From: a virus
Lineage: Duplodnaviria; Heunggongvirae; Uroviricota; Caudoviricetes
Strand: one strand, 5' to 3'
DNA: 32,475 nt
IMG/VR virus record: IMGVR_UViG_2778261088_000010
Coordinates: 1-32,475 of that record
The translations under genes were made by a program, and so were the position numbers. Shown here piece by piece: positions 17,837 through 32,475 of the stretch. The stretch's first letter is position 1; the number at the start of each line of letters is the position of its first letter. The notes under the pieces are model-generated. The model was not told the origin of the DNA. It saw only the letters and a program-made list of their open reading frames with translations, and did not search any database.

Positions 17837-18586
17837 ATGCTCATTCCAACATCTCTATCAAAACAACCAGTAATCGAAGCTGCTTTCGAAATGCGTTTTT
17901 CTAAAGAAACACAAATATCGGAAATAGTTCCAGGGTTTCTTTTTCACGCTCTAGGTTGTACAAAACCAGTAATTAGTTTACCACCCAGTCAAATACCTAA
18001 AAATGTTCGTGAGGGAGATGAACAATTACATTACGCAGTTGTCAGTCGCCTCGAAATCGAAGGGTACTATATTGGACTAAGTGACCATGGTGTTGTTGTA
18101 TCCACCAGCACCAAATATCAAGGGTGGAGTCATTTTAGAGAAAAAATCATTCATGTATTAAATGAGCTTAACAAATTAAATTTAAATGACAACATCATCC
18201 GCTACTCATTAAAGTATGTAGATTTTTTCCCAAAAGAAGACGATTCTAATTTATTTGATAAGCTAAACGTCAGCTTAAATATGGCTGGCGAGTCTATGTC
18301 TAATTATCCGATCAATATCAGAATCGATAAAAATGAAGGCGCATTTCTAAATATAATTCAAATATTATCTCATGCTTTAGTCATGTCAGATAATGGAGAA
18401 TTTAATAAAAAAGGACTAATCCTAGACATAGACAGCATTAGGCAAATCACTAATACTGATGAAATAGATAAGTTTAAAAACGAACCAAAAAAAATTCTTG
18501 ATGATCTTCACTCCTGTAATAAATTAGCTTTCTTTAGTTGCCTTAAAGAGTCAACAATTCAAGAACTAGAACCATCCTACAAATAG
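17837..18586 (+). CDS. Hypothetical protein, first gene of the AT-rich three-gene cassette
   Basis: A 249-aa ORF on the strand opposite to all flanking phage genes, with strongly AT-biased codon usage. No catalytic motif was recognised by eye. Confidence 0.6.
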   Translation: MLIPTSLSKQPVIEAAFEMRFSKETQISEIVPGFLFHALGCTKPVISLPPSQIPKNVREGDEQLHYAVVSRLEIEGYYIGLSDHGVVVSTSTKYQGWSHFREKIIHVLNELNKLNLNDNIIRYSLKYVDFFPKEDDSNLFDKLNVSLNMAGESMSNYPINIRIDKNEGAFLNIIQILSHALVMSDNGEFNKKGLILDIDSIRQITNTDEIDKFKNEPKKILDDLHSCNKLAFFSCLKESTIQELEPSYK

Positions 18587-18601
18587 AAATGGTGGTATGA
18601 T

Positions 18602-18946
18602 ATGTATCCGTCTCATCATGTTTATCGAGCTCAACTTCAAGTATTAACTTTGGTTTTATATGGTCTGCATATAACTGCATTAACAGACATTGCCCAAAAT
18701 CAACAGCATGGTCCTCAACAAAGTTTAATCGTCAAAAATCACGCTTTGGAGTATAAGTCTTCAACTACCGATTCAGTTCATTCCATCACACAAACATATA
18801 AAGCAGGGAGCACAATCTCAGTTGATCAAAGACTTGCAGTCTCGATGACAAACTTTTATGAAAAATTATCGACAAACCAGGTGTCTTTAGGCAGTGAAAT
18901 AAATAAAGTCGTTCATGCTTCACTGTGGGATTTATACTTGGATTAA
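18602..18946 (+). CDS. Hypothetical protein, second gene of the cassette
   Basis: A 114-aa ORF starting 16 nt after the first gene's stop, with a GGTGG RBS-like motif. It has a hydrophobic N-terminal stretch (LQVLTLVLYGLHITAL). Confidence 0.5.
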   Translation: MYPSHHVYRAQLQVLTLVLYGLHITALTDIAQNQQHGPQQSLIVKNHALEYKSSTTDSVHSITQTYKAGSTISVDQRLAVSMTNFYEKLSTNQVSLGSEINKVVHASLWDLYLD

Positions 18947-19564
18947 GTGATGAGTAATAACATTTTTGATATCGAGAAATTCAAAGATCAAATTCCATAT
19001 TATTTAACAGCTCATCAAAAAGAAGGGCTAATAAATGCACTTAGAGATTTCCCTGAAAACACTAACTACTACCTTAGCAATTATCATGATGATCTGAAAA
19101 ATGCTGCACTTCAGGGAGATATATTTAAGGAGCTTACAGTATATTCAATTAAAGGGACTAAAAAAACACGAGGCATTATATTAAGCAACAGTTGCGATAT
19201 AGATACAAGTAATAATCGTGATGTGCCAATGCGTGCAGTCTTTGCTCCGTTAGTAAGTTTATCTAAGTTCGAAGCTATTCTTCTCTCCAACGGAGTTTCT
19301 AAGACTTCAATAGATAGCAAAATTGATGCTATAAGGAAGCAGTTAATTACTAATATTTTTTATCTTCCTGAATCAGACAACTTAGAAGAATGCATCGTTT
19401 TTCTTGATGATGTATACCAATTACCAACGGAAGAATTACAAAAACTCTTGAATGATAAATGCAAAGCCATAACTTTAAGTCAAGTTGGTTTCTACATTTT
19501 ACTATTCAAAATATCTATTCACTTTTGTAGATTCCATGAAAACATACAACGATTCGATCATTAA
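18947..19564 (+). CDS. Hypothetical protein, third gene of the cassette
   Basis: A 205-aa ORF whose start (GTG at 18947 or ATG at 18950) directly abuts the stop of the second gene. It has a hydrophobic C-terminal segment (VGFYILLFKISIHF). Confidence 0.55.
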   Translation: MMSNNIFDIEKFKDQIPYYLTAHQKEGLINALRDFPENTNYYLSNYHDDLKNAALQGDIFKELTVYSIKGTKKTRGIILSNSCDIDTSNNRDVPMRAVFAPLVSLSKFEAILLSNGVSKTSIDSKIDAIRKQLITNIFYLPESDNLEECIVFLDDVYQLPTEELQKLLNDKCKAITLSQVGFYILLFKISIHFCRFHENIQRFDH

Positions 19565-19589: not shown

Positions 19590-19934
19590 TTACACAAGTA
19601 TACTTACAACCCCCTCTATAAAACCGATTGCGGTTTGCAACTCCTTCCTAATAGTGCCATCAGAGCACCTTCTCCTTTTGGCAATAGTGCGTAATGAGAT
19701 ACCAATAACAAAGTGGGCTATGATGAGCTCATATTCCTCTGGTTTATACTTTCTCAACCGAGCCACACAACTGTCTATCATAATGCCTTCGTCATCATCA
19801 CACTGAATCCGTGACTTTTTGCCATGAGGTAAAAGCCCCTTGAAGCCTGCTGCTACCGGCTGCCAGTCCACACCACTGTTGTCTGCTGCAGCCCATGCTC
19901 CCCAGCGGTCCAATACTTCATACATATCACGCAT
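19590..19934 (-). CDS. Q: Late-gene antiterminator Q (82/DLP12 QuuD-like)
   Basis: The product (MRDMYEVLDRWGAWAAADNSGVDWQPVAAGFKGLL...QCDDD...CSDG) resembles the DLP12/82-type Q as recalled, including a Cys cluster. It sits upstream of the lysis cassette on the late strand. Confidence 0.65.
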   Translation of the reverse strand: MRDMYEVLDRWGAWAAADNSGVDWQPVAAGFKGLLPHGKKSRIQCDDDEGIMIDSCVARLRKYKPEEYELIIAHFVIGISLRTIAKRRRCSDGTIRKELQTAIGFIEGVVSILV

Positions 19935-19952
19935 CAACTTACCCCACAAAAA

Positions 19953-24360: not shown

Positions 24361-25189
24361 GACGATGCCCTCCGCTGATATTCAGGAGACGGTGAATATG
24401 AAGATTAGCCTTATCCGCCAAACGAATACGTTCAGCCTGCAAGTTAAGAAGGGTTTCTACCAGAAGTTGATGCGCCTGCGGATCTGAAAGAGTTACCTTG
24501 CGCAGAGCACGTAGTGCTGTTGTTACATAACTGAGTTTATGTAAGTCTTCATCATTCAGACGAGTGAGGGCTGGGACAGTAGCCATGATGGCAGCCTCCT
24601 TGATCGGTGAAATACTTCCACCACCGGAAACGCCAATTTCGCTGGTGGTGAACTGAACGGGGTTGGCGTAACCGGTGATCAAGGAAACCGGCGCATCTTT
24701 CGATGCCCCCGCCCAGCCCACCATAACTTTGATGTGAGCAAATGCGGACGATAAAAAAGACGCTGGCGCGTCATATATCGCCTTGATCAATTCCAGGACG
24801 CCAATCCCGGCACCCGCTTTATAAGGTGCCTGAACAGTGTAACGTCCCGGAATGGCAGAATCAATGTGCTGGTGGTCCTTCACACTCAATAAAATCACGC
24901 CTGAATTTCCACAAAGGACTAAAGCACTCATGCGGGTAGTCTTTGCGAAGATAGATAACGCGCTGCGTTTCTGGCTCCCAACGAATAACATGGACATAAA
25001 GCCCTCTTCCGTCACGAAACCAGCGGTTAAGTTCCTGCACAACGCGCCCCCCACAGTCAGGTAAAGTTCTCTGTGGTTACTTACAGCCAGGTGATTTGGT
25101 AATCTGCATTCATGCCGTAACAACAGGTGTTCAGCGACGCTGACCACCTGCTGTTGCGACAAACGGTTATTTGCCGTTAAACTGTTCAT
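24353..25189 (-). CDS. Hypothetical early-region protein
   Basis: A 278-aa ORF translationally coupled to its neighbours. No motif was recognised. Confidence 0.5.
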   Translation of the reverse strand: MNSLTANNRLSQQQVVSVAEHLLLRHECRLPNHLAVSNHRELYLTVGGALCRNLTAGFVTEEGFMSMLFVGSQKRSALSIFAKTTRMSALVLCGNSGVILLSVKDHQHIDSAIPGRYTVQAPYKAGAGIGVLELIKAIYDAPASFLSSAFAHIKVMVGWAGASKDAPVSLITGYANPVQFTTSEIGVSGGGSISPIKEAAIMATVPALTRLNDEDLHKLSYVTTALRALRKVTLSDPQAHQLLVETLLNLQAERIRLADKANLHIHRLLNISGGHRHA

Positions 25190-27842: not shown

Positions 27843-28667
27843 ATGTCTCAGAACTTAGACGCAACCGCAATTAATCAAATCCATGCCCTTATTTCTGCTC
27901 AGGGTGTTAATGAAATTATCAGTAAGATTGGTGCCGATGCTGTGGCATTGCCTGAGAACTTCCGCATTCATGATCTGGAAAAATTTAATTTAAATCGCTT
28001 CCGTTTCCGTGGTGCGCTTTCCACTGCCAGCATCGATGACTTTACCCGTTATTCTAAAGATCTTGCAAATGAAGGCACCCGCTGCTTTATCGATGCCGAT
28101 AATATGCGTGCCGTCAGTGTGCTTAACCTGGGTACTATTGATGAACCAGGTCACGCAGATAACACCGCCACTCTCAAACTGAAAAAGACAGCACCGTTCT
28201 CTGCTCTGTTGTCTGTTAACGGCGAGCGTAACTCCCAGAAGTCACTGGCAGAATGGATTGAAGACTGGGCCGACTACCTTGTAGGCTTTGATGCTAATGG
28301 TGACGCTATTCAGGCAACAAAAGCGGCTGCGGCTGTCCGTAAAATCACGATTGAAGCAAACCAGACCGCTGATTTTGAAGATAATGACTTCAGCGGAAAA
28401 CGCTCCCTGATGGAGTCTGTCGAAGCGAAGACCAAAGATATTATGCCAGTGGCATTTGAATTTAAATGCGTTCCGTTTGAAGGTCTGAAAGAACGTCCGT
28501 TTAAATTACGCCTCAGCATTATCACTGGCGATCGTCCTGTACTGGTTCTGCGCATTATTCAGTTGGAAGCAGTCCAGGAAGAAATGGCTAACGAATTTCG
28601 TGATCTGCTTGTTGAGAAATTCAAAGACAGCAAAGTAGAAACCTTTATTGGTACTTTCACCGCCTGA
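27843..28667 (+). CDS. Hypothetical protein (YfdQ-like, 274 aa)
   Basis: A 274-aa ORF; length and neighbourhood fit YfdQ of CPS-53 (from memory). Confidence 0.6.
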
Positions 28668-28794
28668 TTTCATTGCTGCAAATGCCCCTGCGGGGGCATT
28701 TATGGAAACGTAATTGACTCAACAATCGCCTGATGGCGAGGGCTTCCTTTTACCCGAATTCAGCGCGGTGCAGCGCATATACGTGGAGAACAAA

Positions 28795-29331
28795 ATGTCA
28801 TTTATTAAAACTTTTTCCGGGAAGCATTTTTATTATGACAAGATAAATAAAGACGACATCGTGATTAACGATATCGCGGTTTCCCTTTCAAATATCTGCC
28901 GCTTTGCCGGTCATCTTTCTCACTTCTACAGCGTCGCCCAACATGCGGTGCTTTGCAGCCAGCTGGTGCCGCAGGAATTTGCTTTTGAAGCGTTAATGCA
29001 TGATGCAACAGAAGCGTATTGCCAGGACATCCCCGCACCACTGAAACGCCTTCTTCCTGACTATAAACGGATGGAAGAAAAAATAGACGCAGTAATCCGT
29101 GAGAAATACGAGTTGCCCCCGGTTATGAGTACGCCTGTGAAATATGCCGATCTAATCATGCTGGCAACCGAACGCCGTGATCTCGGGCTTGATGATGGCT
29201 CTTTCTGGCCTGTACTGGAAGGTATCCCGGCAACAGAGATGTTCAAAGTTATTCCACTGGCACCGGGCCATGCCTACGGGATGTTTATGGAACGCTTTAA
29301 CGAGTTATCAGAGTTACGCACATACGCATGA
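28795..29331 (+). CDS. HD-domain phosphohydrolase (YfdR-like, 178 aa)
   Basis: His and His-Asp motifs are present (VAQHAV...LMHDATEA), typical of HD-domain nucleotidases. A GGAG RBS precedes the ATG at 28795. Confidence 0.7.
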   Translation: MSFIKTFSGKHFYYDKINKDDIVINDIAVSLSNICRFAGHLSHFYSVAQHAVLCSQLVPQEFAFEALMHDATEAYCQDIPAPLKRLLPDYKRMEEKIDAVIREKYELPPVMSTPVKYADLIMLATERRDLGLDDGSFWPVLEGIPATEMFKVIPLAPGHAYGMFMERFNELSELRTYA

Positions 29332-29365
29332 GTCTTTCAACTGTACAACCGCTGGAGGGGAAGCA

Positions 29366-29560
29366 ATGAACAACTTAATGACAACAAAACAAGTCGCCGA
29401 ATTCTGTGGCGTTTCAATATCGACGGTTCTTCGCTGGAACAGCGTAAACAGGAGAACTGGCCAGAAATACAGGCCTGACTTTCCAGATCCTGATATTAAA
29501 TCCTGCCCAAATAAATGGGCATCACGCAAGATATACAGGTTTGCTGGTGTTATTGAATAA
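29366..29560 (+). CDS. xis: Excisionase / AlpA-family small DNA-binding protein
   Basis: A 64-aa product (MNNLMTTKQVAEFCGVSISTVLRW...) with an HTH core and a strong RBS (GGAGGGG). It lies upstream of the integrase. Confidence 0.6.
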   Translation: MNNLMTTKQVAEFCGVSISTVLRWNSVNRRTGQKYRPDFPDPDIKSCPNKWASRKIYRFAGVIE

Positions 29561-29806
29561 TGTGTCTTAGCTCAGATGTGAACAGACACATTTAGAACAC
29601 AGAGTTAAATCTAATCTGACGGTCTAATCTCTATCAAAAACAGACGATTATTGTGTGACTTTTATTGATAAATTTAGCTGGCGTTTAATTCTGCAATACT
29701 GAAGATAAAACGTTCATTTTGCTTAAAAATCCACCTCATAAGCATGACATAACAGAAAAGAAATGTTACATTTGAGGATTGTTTATCAATAAAAATTGGG
29801 GACTGT

Positions 29807-31102
29807 ATGAAGCAAAATAGTACAATTTCGTCTGTTTTTAAGATATCACGAGATCTTCCCGAAAACTATGTCATTAGAAAAGATATAGATGATAAATTCA
29901 TTGAGGCACTGACTCAAGAAACACATGTCGTAATTTATGGCAGCTCAAAACAAGGTAAAACATCCTTAAGAAAAAAGAATCTTCTTCCAGAAGATTATAT
30001 CGATATTACATGTTCAAACACTTGGAAACTGGAAGATATTCACGTTGCAATTTTAAAAAAAATTGGCTATCAAGTTTCAACTTCACAATCCAAAACCTTA
30101 AAAGGCTCAGCTAAGGTAAAAATAGGAATAAATATTCCTTTCATTCATAAAACATCACTTGATTTAACTGGGGATGCTGCAAAAACGATTAATAAAAAAA
30201 ATATTGAATTAGATCCTGGGGATGTCAATGACATAATTACTTCTTTAGAAGAGGTCAATTTCAATAAAATTATTGTTATCGAAGACTTTCACTATCTTCC
30301 AGAACAAACGCAAATTGATTTCTCTGTGGCATTAAAAGCCTTTCATGAATCATCTAAACTTTGTTTTATTATTGTTGGAGTATGGCTGGAAGAGGATAAA
30401 CTAACAACATTTAATGGTGACTTAGCAGGAAGAGTTGTTTCCATTAATGCTGACCGCTGGGAGAAAGAAGACGTATATAAACTATTTGAGAATAGCGAGA
30501 AGTTACTTAACATTAAATTTGATGAAAAATTTAAATCAGATATTATTGAAAAATGTAATGGAAGTATTTTTTTAGTTCAACAGTTATGTTTTAAAGCATG
30601 TGAATTAGAACAGATAAATAATAGCCAAGGTGAACTTAAGATTGTAGGTAAAAATTTTTTAGTTGAAGATGAAATAAAAAAACTAATCAATGAACAATAC
30701 TCAAGATATTTCAAATTTTTAACCGATTTTAGCTGTGGATTTGATCAGACCTCACTTGAATTATACAAATGGATTTTGTATGTTCTGATTACTGTTGAAC
30801 AACGTTATCTTGAAATAGGTGTGCCTGAGGCTGCTATTAGGCGGTTAATTCAAGAAAAACACCCTAAAAAAACAGAAGTTTCACAAAAAAAATTAAGACA
30901 GGCGCTACGAAAGTCTGTTGATCTCCAAGTAAAAATATCTATTAAACCTATTGTTTTTGAGTTTGACTCCAGTTCATCCAGAATTAAGATAGTTGATAGA
31001 CCATTTATATTATGGCGATCGTATCAAAATCAAGATGATCTATACGGATACGCAGATCTATCAGATGATTTAAAAACCAATATTATTACTACTGGATATT
31101 AA
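29807..31102 (+). CDS. P-loop NTPase (AAA-like ATPase) of unknown function in an AT-rich island
   Basis: Walker A (VVIYGSSKQGKTSL) and Walker B (KIIVIEDFHYL) motifs are present. The gene is very AT-rich, with AT-rich flanks, and is inserted between xis and int. Confidence 0.7.
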   Translation: MKQNSTISSVFKISRDLPENYVIRKDIDDKFIEALTQETHVVIYGSSKQGKTSLRKKNLLPEDYIDITCSNTWKLEDIHVAILKKIGYQVSTSQSKTLKGSAKVKIGINIPFIHKTSLDLTGDAAKTINKKNIELDPGDVNDIITSLEEVNFNKIIVIEDFHYLPEQTQIDFSVALKAFHESSKLCFIIVGVWLEEDKLTTFNGDLAGRVVSINADRWEKEDVYKLFENSEKLLNIKFDEKFKSDIIEKCNGSIFLVQQLCFKACELEQINNSQGELKIVGKNFLVEDEIKKLINEQYSRYFKFLTDFSCGFDQTSLELYKWILYVLITVEQRYLEIGVPEAAIRRLIQEKHPKKTEVSQKKLRQALRKSVDLQVKISIKPIVFEFDSSSSRIKIVDRPFILWRSYQNQDDLYGYADLSDDLKTNIITTGY

Positions 31103-31213
31103 TGCATAATTAGCGTAGGCCTGTAAATATAATACTATCCCATACCAAAATAGATATAATTAGTTATGTAGATGACCTCCCTTTGGTGAAAACAAGCTAA
31201 TTATCCTCACTAC

Positions 31214-31249
31214 TTTGAATAAAGTGCCCGCTTCTCGTTTAAGGCGGGC
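31214..31249 (-). terminator. Hairpin plus U-rich tract downstream of int
   Basis: On the minus strand the hairpin GCCCGC-(12 nt)-GCGGGC starts 3 nt after the int stop and is followed by ACTTTATTC. Confidence 0.4.
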
Positions 31250-31251
31250 TG

Positions 31252-32475
31252 TCAGTTAGAGTCTGAATTAGTACAAGTAACAATCGATTCAACTCTCTCC
31301 CACCATGCCTGGTAGGCTTTACGCTGTTCTTCTAGATAATCGCTCTTGTCATAAACTTGCCATACCCCTGGCAGTTTATGACCTAGCATTATTTCTGCAA
31401 TATGAGGCGCAGTAAGATCAGAAAAGTTTGTTCGTGCTGTTCGCCTCAAATCATGAAGAGACCAATGAGGGAATTGATACCCCAAACGCCGCCATGCGTA
31501 CTGCATTAAATTGTAAGGCAGCGACTGCAATGATGTCCGACCAACGGGTTCCCTGCTTCCTTCCTTAGTAAAAAGCATATCGGAACCATTGTTCATAGAA
31601 ATAGCGTACTTTATAAGCTCTTCAACCGGTTCAATAATGGGCCGCTTTAGCGGTTCGCCCGTTATCTCCCCAGTCTTATGTCGTTCTGGTGGTACAGTCC
31701 ATACTTTATTAATGAAATCAAAATCGTCCACCCTGGCGGTAATTAGCTCTGAACTACGGCAGCCAAAATGCAGCAATAGTTTAATGAAGGCCCGGTATTT
31801 AGGAACCATTCGAGAACCATCGATCGCAGCATAAAGGATTTTAATTTCATCATGTGTCAGAAACCGTTTCTTCTGACCTTTACGGATATCCATATCTTTA
31901 CCCGTGATATCCGACAGCGGGCGAGTTTCAATGAGCTTTCTCTTATACGCCCAGACATGGGCCTGCTTTGCGTTAATTAGCAATCGGTCTGCTATTGCTG
32001 GAGTCTTAGTGCTAAGAGGCTCCAGGACTTCTAACCAATCATGCAATGTAGCTGCATCGTGAGGGATATTCCCGATTTTAGAGAACAGGTGCAGCTCAAA
32101 CGAGCGGAGTATCTGTTCAGAGCCTTTTTTATTTTTTACACAATATGCTTCATACCAGGCACGGATCACAGACTCTACCGTCATGGCTTCAGTAGCTTTT
32201 CGTTTTTCAGCCTGCTTGACCAATCGTGGATTACGGTTTGACTCGAGTTCACCACGGAGACGGATAACTTCTTCTCTGGCCTCTTTTAATCCAGTTGCCG
32301 GGTAAGTTCCGATATCAAGACGCTCACCTTTCCCTGCCCATTGATAACGATATTGGAACACTACGCGACCTTTCGGTGATACTCTGACAGACAGACCATC
32401 ACGATCGGATTTAACCAAAACCTTATCACGTTCCTTTCCAACGACTGAACGCAACCACGCATCAGACAGCGCCAT
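31252..32475 (-). CDS. int: Tyrosine integrase, P4-type
   Basis: A 407-aa product. The N-terminus fits the P4-integrase arm-binding domain pattern (GLSVRVSPKGRVVFQYRYQWAGKGERLDIGTYP). The C-terminus has the catalytic LHDLRRTARTN (HxxR) box and a candidate catalytic Tyr. The start codon is the last triplet of the window. Confidence 0.9.
   Translation of the reverse strand: MALSDAWLRSVVGKERDKVLVKSDRDGLSVRVSPKGRVVFQYRYQWAGKGERLDIGTYPATGLKEAREEVIRLRGELESNRNPRLVKQAEKRKATEAMTVESVIRAWYEAYCVKNKKGSEQILRSFELHLFSKIGNIPHDAATLHDWLEVLEPLSTKTPAIADRLLINAKQAHVWAYKRKLIETRPLSDITGKDMDIRKGQKKRFLTHDEIKILYAAIDGSRMVPKYRAFIKLLLHFGCRSSELITARVDDFDFINKVWTVPPERHKTGEITGEPLKRPIIEPVEELIKYAISMNNGSDMLFTKEGSREPVGRTSLQSLPYNLMQYAWRRLGYQFPHWSLHDLRRTARTNFSDLTAPHIAEIMLGHKLPGVWQVYDKSDYLEEQRKAYQAWWERVESIVTCTNSDSN

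Follow-up and report, generated by a model that had tools for sequence, protein, structure and literature searches.

The window, i.e., the whole stretch of 32,475 nucleotides that was analysed, belongs to a lambdoid prophage of E. coli whose integration site is next to yjjG, the gene that the integrase adjoins in every locus read. At its right end, the ATPase gene is the sole gene in a variable slot between the excisionase and the integrase, with the following arrangement:

29366..29560, plus strand: excisionase, 64 aa (phrog_1553), the last gene left of the slot common to related prophages
29616..29806, plus strand: cargo-specific AT-rich upstream region, not common to seven related prophages
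29744-29772, plus strand: promoter-like site ATGACA-17-TACATT with TG (consensus scan and sequence reading)
29798-29802, plus strand: GGGGA ribosome-binding site of the ATPase gene (sequence reading)
29807..31102, plus strand: ATPase gene of family PDC-S59, 431 aa (ORF call and PADLOC profile match)
31103..31251, no strand: cargo-specific AT-rich spacer where the ATPase and integrase genes converge, not common to related prophages
31226-31231 (GCCCGC) and 31244-31249 (GCGGGC), no strand: GC hairpin in this spacer (sequence reading)
31252..32475, minus strand: tyrosine integrase, 407 aa, right border of the slot (Pfam Arm-DNA-bind_3, Phage_int_M and Phage_integrase)

The ATPase ORF is a real gene, because the chance of 431 stop-free codons at the local base composition is 6e-17 and its best homologues reach E 1e-280. 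The initial annotation had placed it between an excisionase and an integrase, and both neighbours are as described: the left one matches the 'excisionase' family phrog_1553 at E 2.3e-35 over residues 1-64, its full length (HTH_17/MerR Pfam matches are weak), and the right one carries the Pfam domains of a tyrosine integrase. The strong AT-richness that had been noted for the gene and both flanking intergenic regions, unlike the neighbouring genes, is equally evident (0.31 GC against 0.45-0.46 in the flanks). Specifically, the GC content is 0.304 in the ATPase ORF and 0.311 over 29616-31248, versus 0.452 in the integrase and 0.459 over 27843-29560; GC3 is 0.21 in the ATPase ORF versus 0.40 in the integrase, and the ATPase region is where GC over 1.6 kb is lowest in the window, falling to 0.305 at 29590 (against a mean of 0.487 and an sd of 0.062 for the window as a whole). 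In each host examined, too, the gene is AT-rich. The site at 29744-29772 is offered as a suggestion of the ATPase promoter, since promoter-like sites in 29300-31400 are not above chance in number (10 found, 8.7 expected). A terminator scan of the same interval gave nothing above chance, and for want of a T run the GC hairpin of the spacer was not called in it; neither an Rfam family nor a notable repeat was found in the ATPase region.

The breakpoints of the slot relative to related prophages are sharp, at 29615-29673 on the left and 31249-31252 on the right, and the interval initially singled out (29561-31251) corresponds almost exactly to the segment that these prophages do not share. Among 5426 complete E. 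coli genomes, the integrase (counted as present at >= 95% identity) occurs in 700, about 13%, and the ATPase in a single one, which leaves 699 of the 700 integrase-bearing genomes without it. The junction between excisionase and integrase, which had been proposed for comparison across relatives, proved variable: the slot holds 10 different cargos across 14 sampled prophages with the same integrase, and the ATPase is not what fills it in related prophages. The other finding that the initial annotation had named as overturning a defensive interpretation, namely presence at this position in all related prophages with no contrast in composition, is thus contradicted. Moreover, the idea that integrase-proximal positions host defence cargo agrees with the other occupants, which include the validated defence gene Dsr1 (three times), the Abi-like AIPR (5e-43), DUF4365, and an Mrr-type nuclease (Mrr_cat) accompanied by a HEPN/RES-NTD-like protein; five cargos of relatives had no match in PADLOC and Pfam scans. 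These occupants sit at the identical genomic position in sister prophages, whose integrases are 96-99% identical, and, like the window ATPase gene, they are mostly AT-rich (0.34-0.36 GC) and mostly single- or two-gene cargos. The ATPase gene is a horizontally acquired, swappable cargo of the excisionase-integrase slot.

The AlphaFold models of the protein comprise an AAA+ core with a basic beta-hairpin insert, followed by a lid and then by a winged-helix domain. Its landmarks, with motif conservation judged over 40 diverse homologues, are the following:

29939..29962, plus strand: Walker A/P-loop, residues 45-52, GSSKQGKT (conservation)
30065..30217, plus strand: basic insert in the ATPase core, residues ~87-137, a beta-hairpin and then a loop (AlphaFold model)
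30269..30286, plus strand: Walker B, residues 155-160, IIVIED, followed by F161-H162-Y163 (conservation)
30431..30433, plus strand: R209, candidate arginine finger just before strand 5, in an invariant N-x-D-L-x-G-R
30452..30610, plus strand: AAA+ lid domain, residues ~216-268, with the motif G-S-x-F-L-V-Q-x-x-C-x-x-x-C (model and conservation)
30662..31021, plus strand: basic winged-helix domain, residues ~286-405, with invariant H352-P353 and wing residues D387, D397 and W403

Both motifs recognised from the outset, the Walker A GSSKQGKTS at residues 45-53 and the Walker B IIVIED, are conserved in the 40 homologues, in which G45, S47, K48, Q49, G50, K51 and T52 of the former, E159 of the latter and, just after it, F161, H162 and Y163 are invariant and position 160 is D or E. 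Conversely, the 'uncharacterised C-terminal half' of the initial annotation gives way to the AAA+ lid, with helices at 220-234, 240-249 and 254-267 and invariant Q258, C261 and C265, and to the winged-helix domain. The protein is an AAA+/STAND-like nucleotide switch in which a P-loop core is joined to a lid and a winged helix. Its insert consists of strands 88-96 and 102-108 and of a loop (110-130) at pLDDT below 50, with a pI of 9.7 and 8 K+R in 51 residues. R209 is invariant and sits in the right position for an arginine finger (box VII), a candidate role that is assigned from its position only. At the end of strand 4, the sensor-1 position, as assigned from alignment and secondary structure, is taken by an invariant W193 (G191-V-W193) rather than by a polar residue, which makes efficient ATP hydrolysis uncertain. 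No enzymatic effector fold was found in the AlphaFold models. The AAA+ core of the models is most similar to the archaeal ATPases PABY2304/SSO1545 and next to Orc1/Cdc6, TnsC and STAND proteins. Foldseek searches of the PDB returned only generic AAA+ matches (TM 0.3-0.45). For the winged helix, the best single structural match is ESCRT-II SNF8, a protein-binding winged helix; the modelled protein probably binds DNA, and the winged-helix likeness is in itself no proof of this.

The profile searches that had been advised, alongside structure prediction, assign the full-length protein to a defence-candidate model. Specifically, residues 6-409 match positions 4-405 of the 428 in PADLOC PDC-S59 (model PDLC05049) at E 2.7e-73 and 245 bits, the sole PADLOC match at E<=1. 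The AAA_14/DUF4143-like and KAP-like affinities initially considered receive no Pfam match, either with the query at E<=1 or with the 40 homologues at E<=0.1; Pfam at E<=1 gives only a sub-threshold AAA_22 match to the query and NCBIfam none, a profile search of PDB sequences yields nothing meaningful (best E 0.8), and the sole PHROG match is an unknown-function family that covers the N-terminal 272 residues (3e-18). The window ATPase has more than 1900 homologues, and the homologue set forms 2209 clusters at 50% identity from several phyla, with 45% identity between the E. coli ATPase and homologues from Nostoc, Salinibacter and Acidobacteria. The family is under purifying selection and horizontally spread. 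Across 11 contexts from other taxa the neighbours differ and no conserved neighbour gene was found. The Vibrio homologue is a single integron cassette between ~120-nt repeats that adjoins Abi_C and NERD cassettes; those of Edwardsiella, Providencia and Serratia occupy moron or edge positions of prophages; that of Nostoc lies beside a SacI-type RM system and that of P. aeruginosa beside HigBA and an Mrr-like nuclease, and some others are placed among housekeeping genes, without defence neighbours. Together with the slot cargos, these neighbourhoods associate the family qualitatively with defence genes and mobile-element hotspots, and the gene stands alone both in the slot and in the Vibrio cassette, in keeping with a single-gene system. 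Two independent contexts in Pseudomonas composti have a 170-aa gene 13 nt upstream of the homologue; this gene is clade-specific, absent elsewhere and without a PADLOC match.

The PDC sets comprise 145 candidate systems obtained by computational prediction, as the preprint presents them (Payne et al., bioRxiv 10.1101/2024.01.29.577857), and the DefensePredictor paper left PDCs out as unvalidated. Neither PDC-S59 nor WP_196112478, the accession of the window ATPase, is named in any searchable paper; a comparable ATPase is not mentioned in the integron-cassette screen paper, and a literature search on ORC/Cdc6 and anti-phage activity yielded nothing on this family. As the family is already catalogued, the window ATPase is a good but unsurprising candidate immunity gene.

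More than 2000 proteins of about 500 aa form a sister family that combines the same module with a C-terminal TIR_2 domain, as exemplified by WP_168200140.1 from an Acetobacter vaccinii plasmid (AAA_22, winged helix and TIR_2). It aligns with the window module at an hhalign probability of 99% (E 3.6e-18, 321 columns) and matches the PDC-S59 model at 1.1e-17, and its TIR domain is recognised at E 1.5e-9. The two families have in common the Walker A motif, the hhhh[DE]DFHxL, DLGxR and GSxxxxQxxCxKxC motifs, the HP pair and the acidic wing residues. In the alignment, GSSKQGKT of the window ATPase faces GPSGIGKT, the IIVIED region faces VIVDDFHRL, and R209 faces the invariant R146 of D-L-G-x-R, while the lid motif appears as GSFQIxQLLCxKxC. 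In contrast, the sister family has an invariant Asn at sensor-1 (G128-I-N130) in place of the Trp of the window ATPase and DD in place of its E-D/E at Walker B, lacks the ~50-residue basic beta-hairpin insert of the window ATPase, being gapped there in the hhalign alignment, and bears the C-terminal TIR that the latter lacks. Rare fusions of the module to an nSTAND3 module were also found.

The reading that we favour, with modest confidence, is that this swappable slot cargo, a stand-alone member of PDC-S59, acts as a single-gene immunity protein against phages or other invaders. A role in defence as such is reasonably probable, while the assembly on DNA put forward as its output is a doubtful proposal. 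In the resting lysogen, the protein would be a closed monomer; an infection cue, be it the DNA or a protein of the phage or an intermediate of replication or packaging, would then drive its ATP-dependent oligomerisation. In the TIR-fused sister family the assembly of such an oligomer would switch on the TIR effector, and in the effector-less window form the assembly itself may be the output. Like Orc1/Cdc6, TnsC and MuB, the protein would clamp or coat DNA, here through its two basic elements, the beta-hairpin insert and the winged helix. The result would be a block to replication, transcription or packaging of the phage, or else an arrest of the host. The killing or blocking step is one that we purely infer, because no effector domain was found. 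An unlikely generalisation would see PDC-S59 as a family of effector-less immune proteins whose effector is their own ATP-driven polymerisation on invading DNA, which would coat that DNA or jam origins in an ORC/TnsC/MuB-like manner; the insert would have taken over the function of the TIR effector of the sister family, and the winged helix may recognise some feature of DNA that is foreign or modified.

Among the competing explanations, the ATPase may be a sensor or adaptor only, i.e., half of a split system whose effector (e.g., a nuclease or protease recruited to the assembled oligomer) comes in trans from the host or from a different mobile element. Neither model of the protein contains an effector fold, and the fusion of close relatives to TIR or to a second STAND module shows that a partner domain is the usual companion of the module; the 170-aa gene of P. 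composti, found twice in independent contexts, would suit such a partner. The explanation has a low probability; against it stand the lack of a conserved neighbour in the 11 contexts, the travel of the gene as a lone integron cassette and a lone slot gene, and the confinement of that 170-aa gene, unmatched in PADLOC, to Pseudomonas. Moreover, the family spans phyla, and therefore any partner acting in trans would need to be universal. A cargo without a defensive function is comparably improbable: the mobile element would benefit from a DNA-binding protein of the ORC/Cdc6 kind, a regulator or maintenance factor engaged, for example, in silencing, replication control or modulation of a stress response, in the way that archaeal Orc1-2 is a regulator and not an initiator. 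Orc1/Cdc6 and ATP-dependent regulators (e.g., MalT) are indeed built as an AAA+ module followed by a winged helix, some homologues reside among housekeeping genes, and the defence role of PDC-S59 is a prediction only. Against it, the same slot of sister prophages accommodates Dsr1, AIPR and nucleases, the gene is dispensable for this prophage type, as its absence from nearly all integrase-bearing E. coli genomes indicates, and the cassette, RM and TA neighbourhoods, along with the TIR-fused sister family, point to conflict systems.

The gene could also be a selfish element of the toxic or addiction type, or a factor for the exclusion of rival plasmids or prophages, not of lytic phages. Its AT-richness, mobility and rarity, its occurrence on integrons and prophages beside TA modules, and the action of the related AAA_22 proteins TnsC and MuB on mobile DNA are compatible with this, but no cognate antitoxin or partner gene accompanies it, and its strong cross-phylum conservation suits a simple toxin less well than a functional protein; the explanation, which is very improbable, overlaps in practice with the defence hypothesis. 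The initial annotation had named a conserved core phage function, such as replication or packaging, as a finding that would overturn a defensive interpretation. The corresponding explanation here, a core phage or transposon ATPase that packages DNA, initiates replication or acts as its loader, or selects targets in the manner of TniB/TnsC/MuB, is effectively refuted: a tblastn search of 50,697 phage genomes with the ATPase gave no match, one of the 700 integrase-bearing genomes encodes it, no transposase or replication module adjoins it in any context, and the terminase and replication genes of the prophage lie elsewhere in the prophage.

If the single-gene immunity protein does protect against phages, PDC-S59, with its 2209 clusters, would pass from a catalogue entry to a validated system, for which the E. 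coli copy, retaining its native context, is a convenient model. The absence of an enzymatic effector, set against the TIR-bearing sister family, provides a natural experiment on nucleotide-switch defence without a separate effector. Furthermore, in a prophage type carried by ~13% of complete E. coli genomes, the locus delimits a cargo slot with sharp borders, and at least five of its other occupants, which have no known domain, are further defence candidates.

Compared with known ATPases, the window protein shares its fold class with the archaeal Walker-type/AAA+ ATPases PABY2304 (2qen) and SSO1545 (2fna), at 14-15% identity; since these are archaeal proteins without an established function, the likeness gives a fold class and not an explanation, and no PDC-S59 member among the 40 reaches E<=0.1 with Pfam ATPase_2 (PF01637). 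With the initiator-type AAA+ proteins it has in common the Walker A G45-x4-G-K51-T52, the Walker B hhhh-E159-[DE]160 and the C-terminal winged helix, but not the polar sensor-1, the helical initiator-specific motif or the ORC/Cdc6 sequence profile; where Orc1/Cdc6 has that helical motif, its insertion is a beta-hairpin and a loop. Unlike Orc1/Cdc6 and TnsC/MuB/TniB, it has no origin, helicase or transposase partner; across the 40 members, the ORC/Cdc6 family is absent from the Pfam matches and TniB appears below threshold in six, and no transposase lies beside the gene in 12 contexts. The STAND-like affinity initially suggested stands in part: the NBD-lid-winged-helix core resembles STAND, ORC and archaeal ATPases, while the sensor repeats and effector that characterise STAND NTPases (Avs, bacterial NLR-like, NB-ARC/CED-4 and MalT) are missing, with no C-terminal repeats and no N-terminal effector. 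The invariant Arg at the arginine-finger position is, in turn, missing from classical STANDs, and the Pfam nSTAND matches are sub-threshold, in 1-2 of the 40 members. A further likeness is that of the extended winged helix to the SBD with which type IV restriction enzymes read phosphorothioate DNA. Dsr1, a validated SIR2-type defence protein, has an enzymatic effector that the window ATPase lacks, and the proteins of Dsr1, AIPR and the other slot occupants are unrelated to it. Within PDC-S59, the window ATPase is a typical member with no structural difference.

The ATPase lies in a lambdoid E. coli prophage integrated beside yjjG, whose genes cover tail, head, terminase, lysis, Q, replication, regulation, a cI-like repressor, yfdPQR, xis, and int. 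Its position between excisionase and integrase, as given in the initial annotation, holds:

29366-29560, strand +, excisionase on the left (phrog_1553, E 2.3e-35)
29807..31102, strand +, ATPase ORF, 431 aa
31252-32475, strand -, complete tyrosine integrase on the right

The gene is real, since the chance of 431 codons without a stop is 6e-17 given the local base composition and the best homologues reach E values down to 1e-280. The Walker A (GSSKQGKTS, residues 45-53) and Walker B (IIVIED, residues 155-160) motifs read earlier from the ORF were both located and are invariant or nearly invariant in 40 homologues from several phyla. The AT-richness reported relative to the neighbours was likewise borne out: the GC content of the ORF is 0.304 (GC3 0.21) versus 0.452 for the integrase and 0.459 for the yfdQ-yfdR-xis block, and positions 29616-31248 (GC 0.311) contain less GC than any other 1.6-kb stretch of the 32.5-kb window (mean 0.487, sd 0.062).

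In blastn comparisons with seven related prophages, homology ends at 29615-29673 on the left and restarts at 31249-31252 on the right, exactly at the integrase stop codon; because of these sharp breaks, 29561-31251 is a discrete replaceable cassette. The integrase (at least 95% identity) is carried by 700 of 5426 complete E. coli genomes and the ATPase segment by one, and in E. coli assemblies the identical ATPase protein always occupies this excisionase-integrase slot. When the junction was compared among 14 prophages with this integrase, the suspected variability of the slot was confirmed, with ten distinct cargos, including the ATPase and the following:

Dsr1, found three times
AIPR protein (Pfam, 5e-43)
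Mrr_cat nuclease with a HEPN/RES-NTD-like protein
DUF4365 protein
five cargos without a known domain (342, 413, 345, and 239 aa, and a 160+150 aa pair), in other E. coli at L003:6471-7499, L004:6357-7333, L006:6522-7763, L007:6521-7558, and L037:3496-4215

Every cargo but Dsr1 is AT-rich, with a GC content of 0.34-0.36. This variety and AT-richness typify a defence or cargo hotspot, and they show the ATPase to be neither a core phage function nor a fixed occupant without GC contrast, the two outcomes that the initial annotation had named as counting against its reading. The five domain-less cargos, two of which recur in independent strains, have no Pfam or PADLOC matches and are, judged from their position, further defence candidates. 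A perfect 8-bp inverted repeat (ATGTGTCT ... AGACACAT, 16-nt loop, window 29560-29591) overlaps the final base of the excisionase stop codon, extends downstream, and falls within the part common to related prophages, directly before the cargo breakpoint. It could act in termination, or mark the slot boundary as a site for recombination or regulation.

The prophage carries a second AT-rich island (17837-19564, strand +, GC 0.32-0.34) with three ORFs in the same orientation (249, 114, and 205 aa), on the strand opposite to its flanks, a Q-antiterminator-like gene (19590-19949, strand -) and lysis genes. Pfam and PADLOC give no matches for these ORFs, but each matches over its full length a PHROG of unknown function (phrog_5464, 5728, 4575; E 1e-59 to 1e-132). 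Since strain VTB96775v, with an otherwise near-identical prophage, has a DNA methyltransferase and small ORFs there, the island is another variable slot for cargo, here filled by a three-gene cassette. Two adjacent Rfam matches above the gathering score lie in the early/regulatory region:

24641-24728, strand -, C4 antisense RNA (82 bits)
24753-24829, strand -, isrK Hfq-binding sRNA (64 bits)

By sequence match, the pair suggests that this lambdoid prophage has an antisense immunity element of the P1/P7 type.

Pfam yields only a sub-threshold AAA_22 match to the ATPase (E 4.8e-4) and NCBIfam none, and the single PADLOC match is full-length, to PDC-S59 (E 2.7e-73). The PDC sets comprise 145 candidates that 'guilt-by-embedding' inside BREX, DISARM, and type I RM loci predicts; they are explicitly presented as predictions only (10.1101/2024.01.29.577857). 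The searchable literature mentions neither PDC-S59 nor the ATPase accession. A word-indexed search returned more than 1900 homologues, and an exhaustive one 2209 clusters (50% identity, E<=1e-3), 366 of them with E<=1e-30. Almost all members measure 410-450 aa; their hosts are Enterobacterales, Vibrionales, Pseudomonas, Acinetobacter, cyanobacteria, Bacteroidota, and Acidobacteria, with about 45% identity between the E. coli ATPase and the most distant members listed.

The homologue is a single chromosomal-integron cassette in a Vibrio strain, flanked by ~120-nt repeats (L014 7839-7959 and 9295-9415) and adjoining Abi_C and NERD cassettes; a prophage moron between the recombination module and the repressor in Edwardsiella; at a P2-like prophage edge in Providencia and Serratia, and in Serratia also at the same chromosomal site without a prophage; beside a SacI-type RM pair in Nostoc; beside HigBA and an Mrr-like nuclease in P. 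aeruginosa; and amid housekeeping genes in an acidobacterial MAG. None of the neighbouring genes is common to these contexts, in every host examined the gene is AT-rich for its surroundings (0.32 where the locus has 0.54, 0.39 where it has 0.59), none of 50,697 sequenced phage genomes contains a match, and plasmids give only distant matches, on 12; the gene is therefore autonomous and horizontally mobile rather than a core phage function. In Pseudomonas composti and a metagenome contig, a 170-aa gene (L019:7476-7988, L020:4522-5034) without PADLOC matches precedes the homologue by 13 nt, each time in different surroundings, which suggests a clade-specific two-gene version.

The structural model describes a conserved P-loop AAA+/STAND-like core followed by a lid and a winged helix, without an effector domain:

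aa 40-58, strand 1 and P-loop
aa 64-85, strand 2 and helix 2
about 50 residues, basic insert (beta-hairpin 88-108, then a low-confidence loop)
aa 155-160, Walker B, then strand 4
invariant N-x-D-L-x-G-R209, directly before strand 5
aa 216-268, three-helix lid, then the C-terminal domain

The invariant residues include three cysteines (C69, C261, C265) and two histidines (H162, H352), located at the strand 2 and strand 3 tips, in the C-x3-C of the final lid helix, and in the winged helix. Binding of a metal or redox activity is one potential role for them, an MHD-like contact with the nucleotide another.

The nearest relatives bear a TIR effector. A 496-aa Acetobacter vaccinii protein, with an AAA_22 P-loop and a C-terminal TIR_2 (E 1.5e-9), aligns to ATPase residues 142-409 (25% identity, BLASTP E 6e-13); its gene (L030:5773-7263, plasmid NZ_CP043507.1) adjoins integrases and MazEF. 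It represents a sister family of over 2000 proteins, ~500 aa long and with few exceptions annotated AAA_22+TIR_2. Their architecture is AAA_22, lid, winged helix, and TIR_2, and the family profile aligns to that of PDC-S59 across 321 columns that reach from the N-terminus as far as the wing of the winged helix (hhalign, probability 99%, E 3.6e-18). Because PADLOC matches this sister protein only partially (PDC-S59 in the core, 1.1e-17; PDC-S66 in the TIR part, 2e-9), the family may be an uncatalogued TIR-ATPase defence family. Rare PDC-S59 members carry an N-terminal nSTAND3 module (P0257, 860 aa; P0259, 791 aa), hence two ATPase modules per protein, or a 390-residue C-terminal extension without an assigned identity (P0283, 797 aa). 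In being fused to TIR and STAND domains, the module follows the pattern seen in immune and conflict systems.

The ATPase is mobile, autonomous cargo of defence-type locations, and a defence role is the reading we moderately favour. An infection cue would cause it, as a nucleotide-dependent switch, to oligomerise. TIR effectors generally require oligomerisation, as in TIR-STAND and TNL systems, so the module common to both families is probably the assembling part, and in the effector-less form assembly itself would be the likeliest output. By analogy, the placement of the insert and the basic winged helix suggest ATP-dependent DNA clamping or coating, which would block phage replication, transcription, or packaging; we regard this particular output as possible but doubtful. 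A sensor dependent on an effector in trans would fit the effector-less layout, but the unconserved neighbourhoods speak against it; it is unlikely, and equally so is a non-defence ORC-like regulator or maintenance factor, a reading that the ORC-like core invites and that the defence-type locations oppose. A selfish or anti-plasmid element, compatible with the mobility of the gene, is improbable, and a core phage or transposon ATPase is effectively refuted.

The ATPase is, as a specialist would expect, a typical member of a catalogued, predicted-only family in a typical prophage hotspot. An archaeal-ATPase/ORC-like core with a winged helix and no effector (by structural classification), the TIR-bearing sister family, and the sharply bounded slot with several unknown cargos are all absent from the searchable literature, and these three points make the ATPase deserve a bench test. 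Compared with known systems, its basic insert occupies the position, between strands 2 and 3, at which DNA-contacting insertions occur in initiator and transposition AAA+ proteins. PDC-S59 and the TIR family share Walker A, hhhh[DE]DFHxL, DLGxR (R209), the lid GSxxxxQxxCxKxC, the winged-helix HP, and two acidic wing residues with a Trp, whereas the TIR family lacks the basic insert, has Asn in place of the invariant W193 as candidate sensor-1, and carries DD rather than E-[DE] in Walker B.
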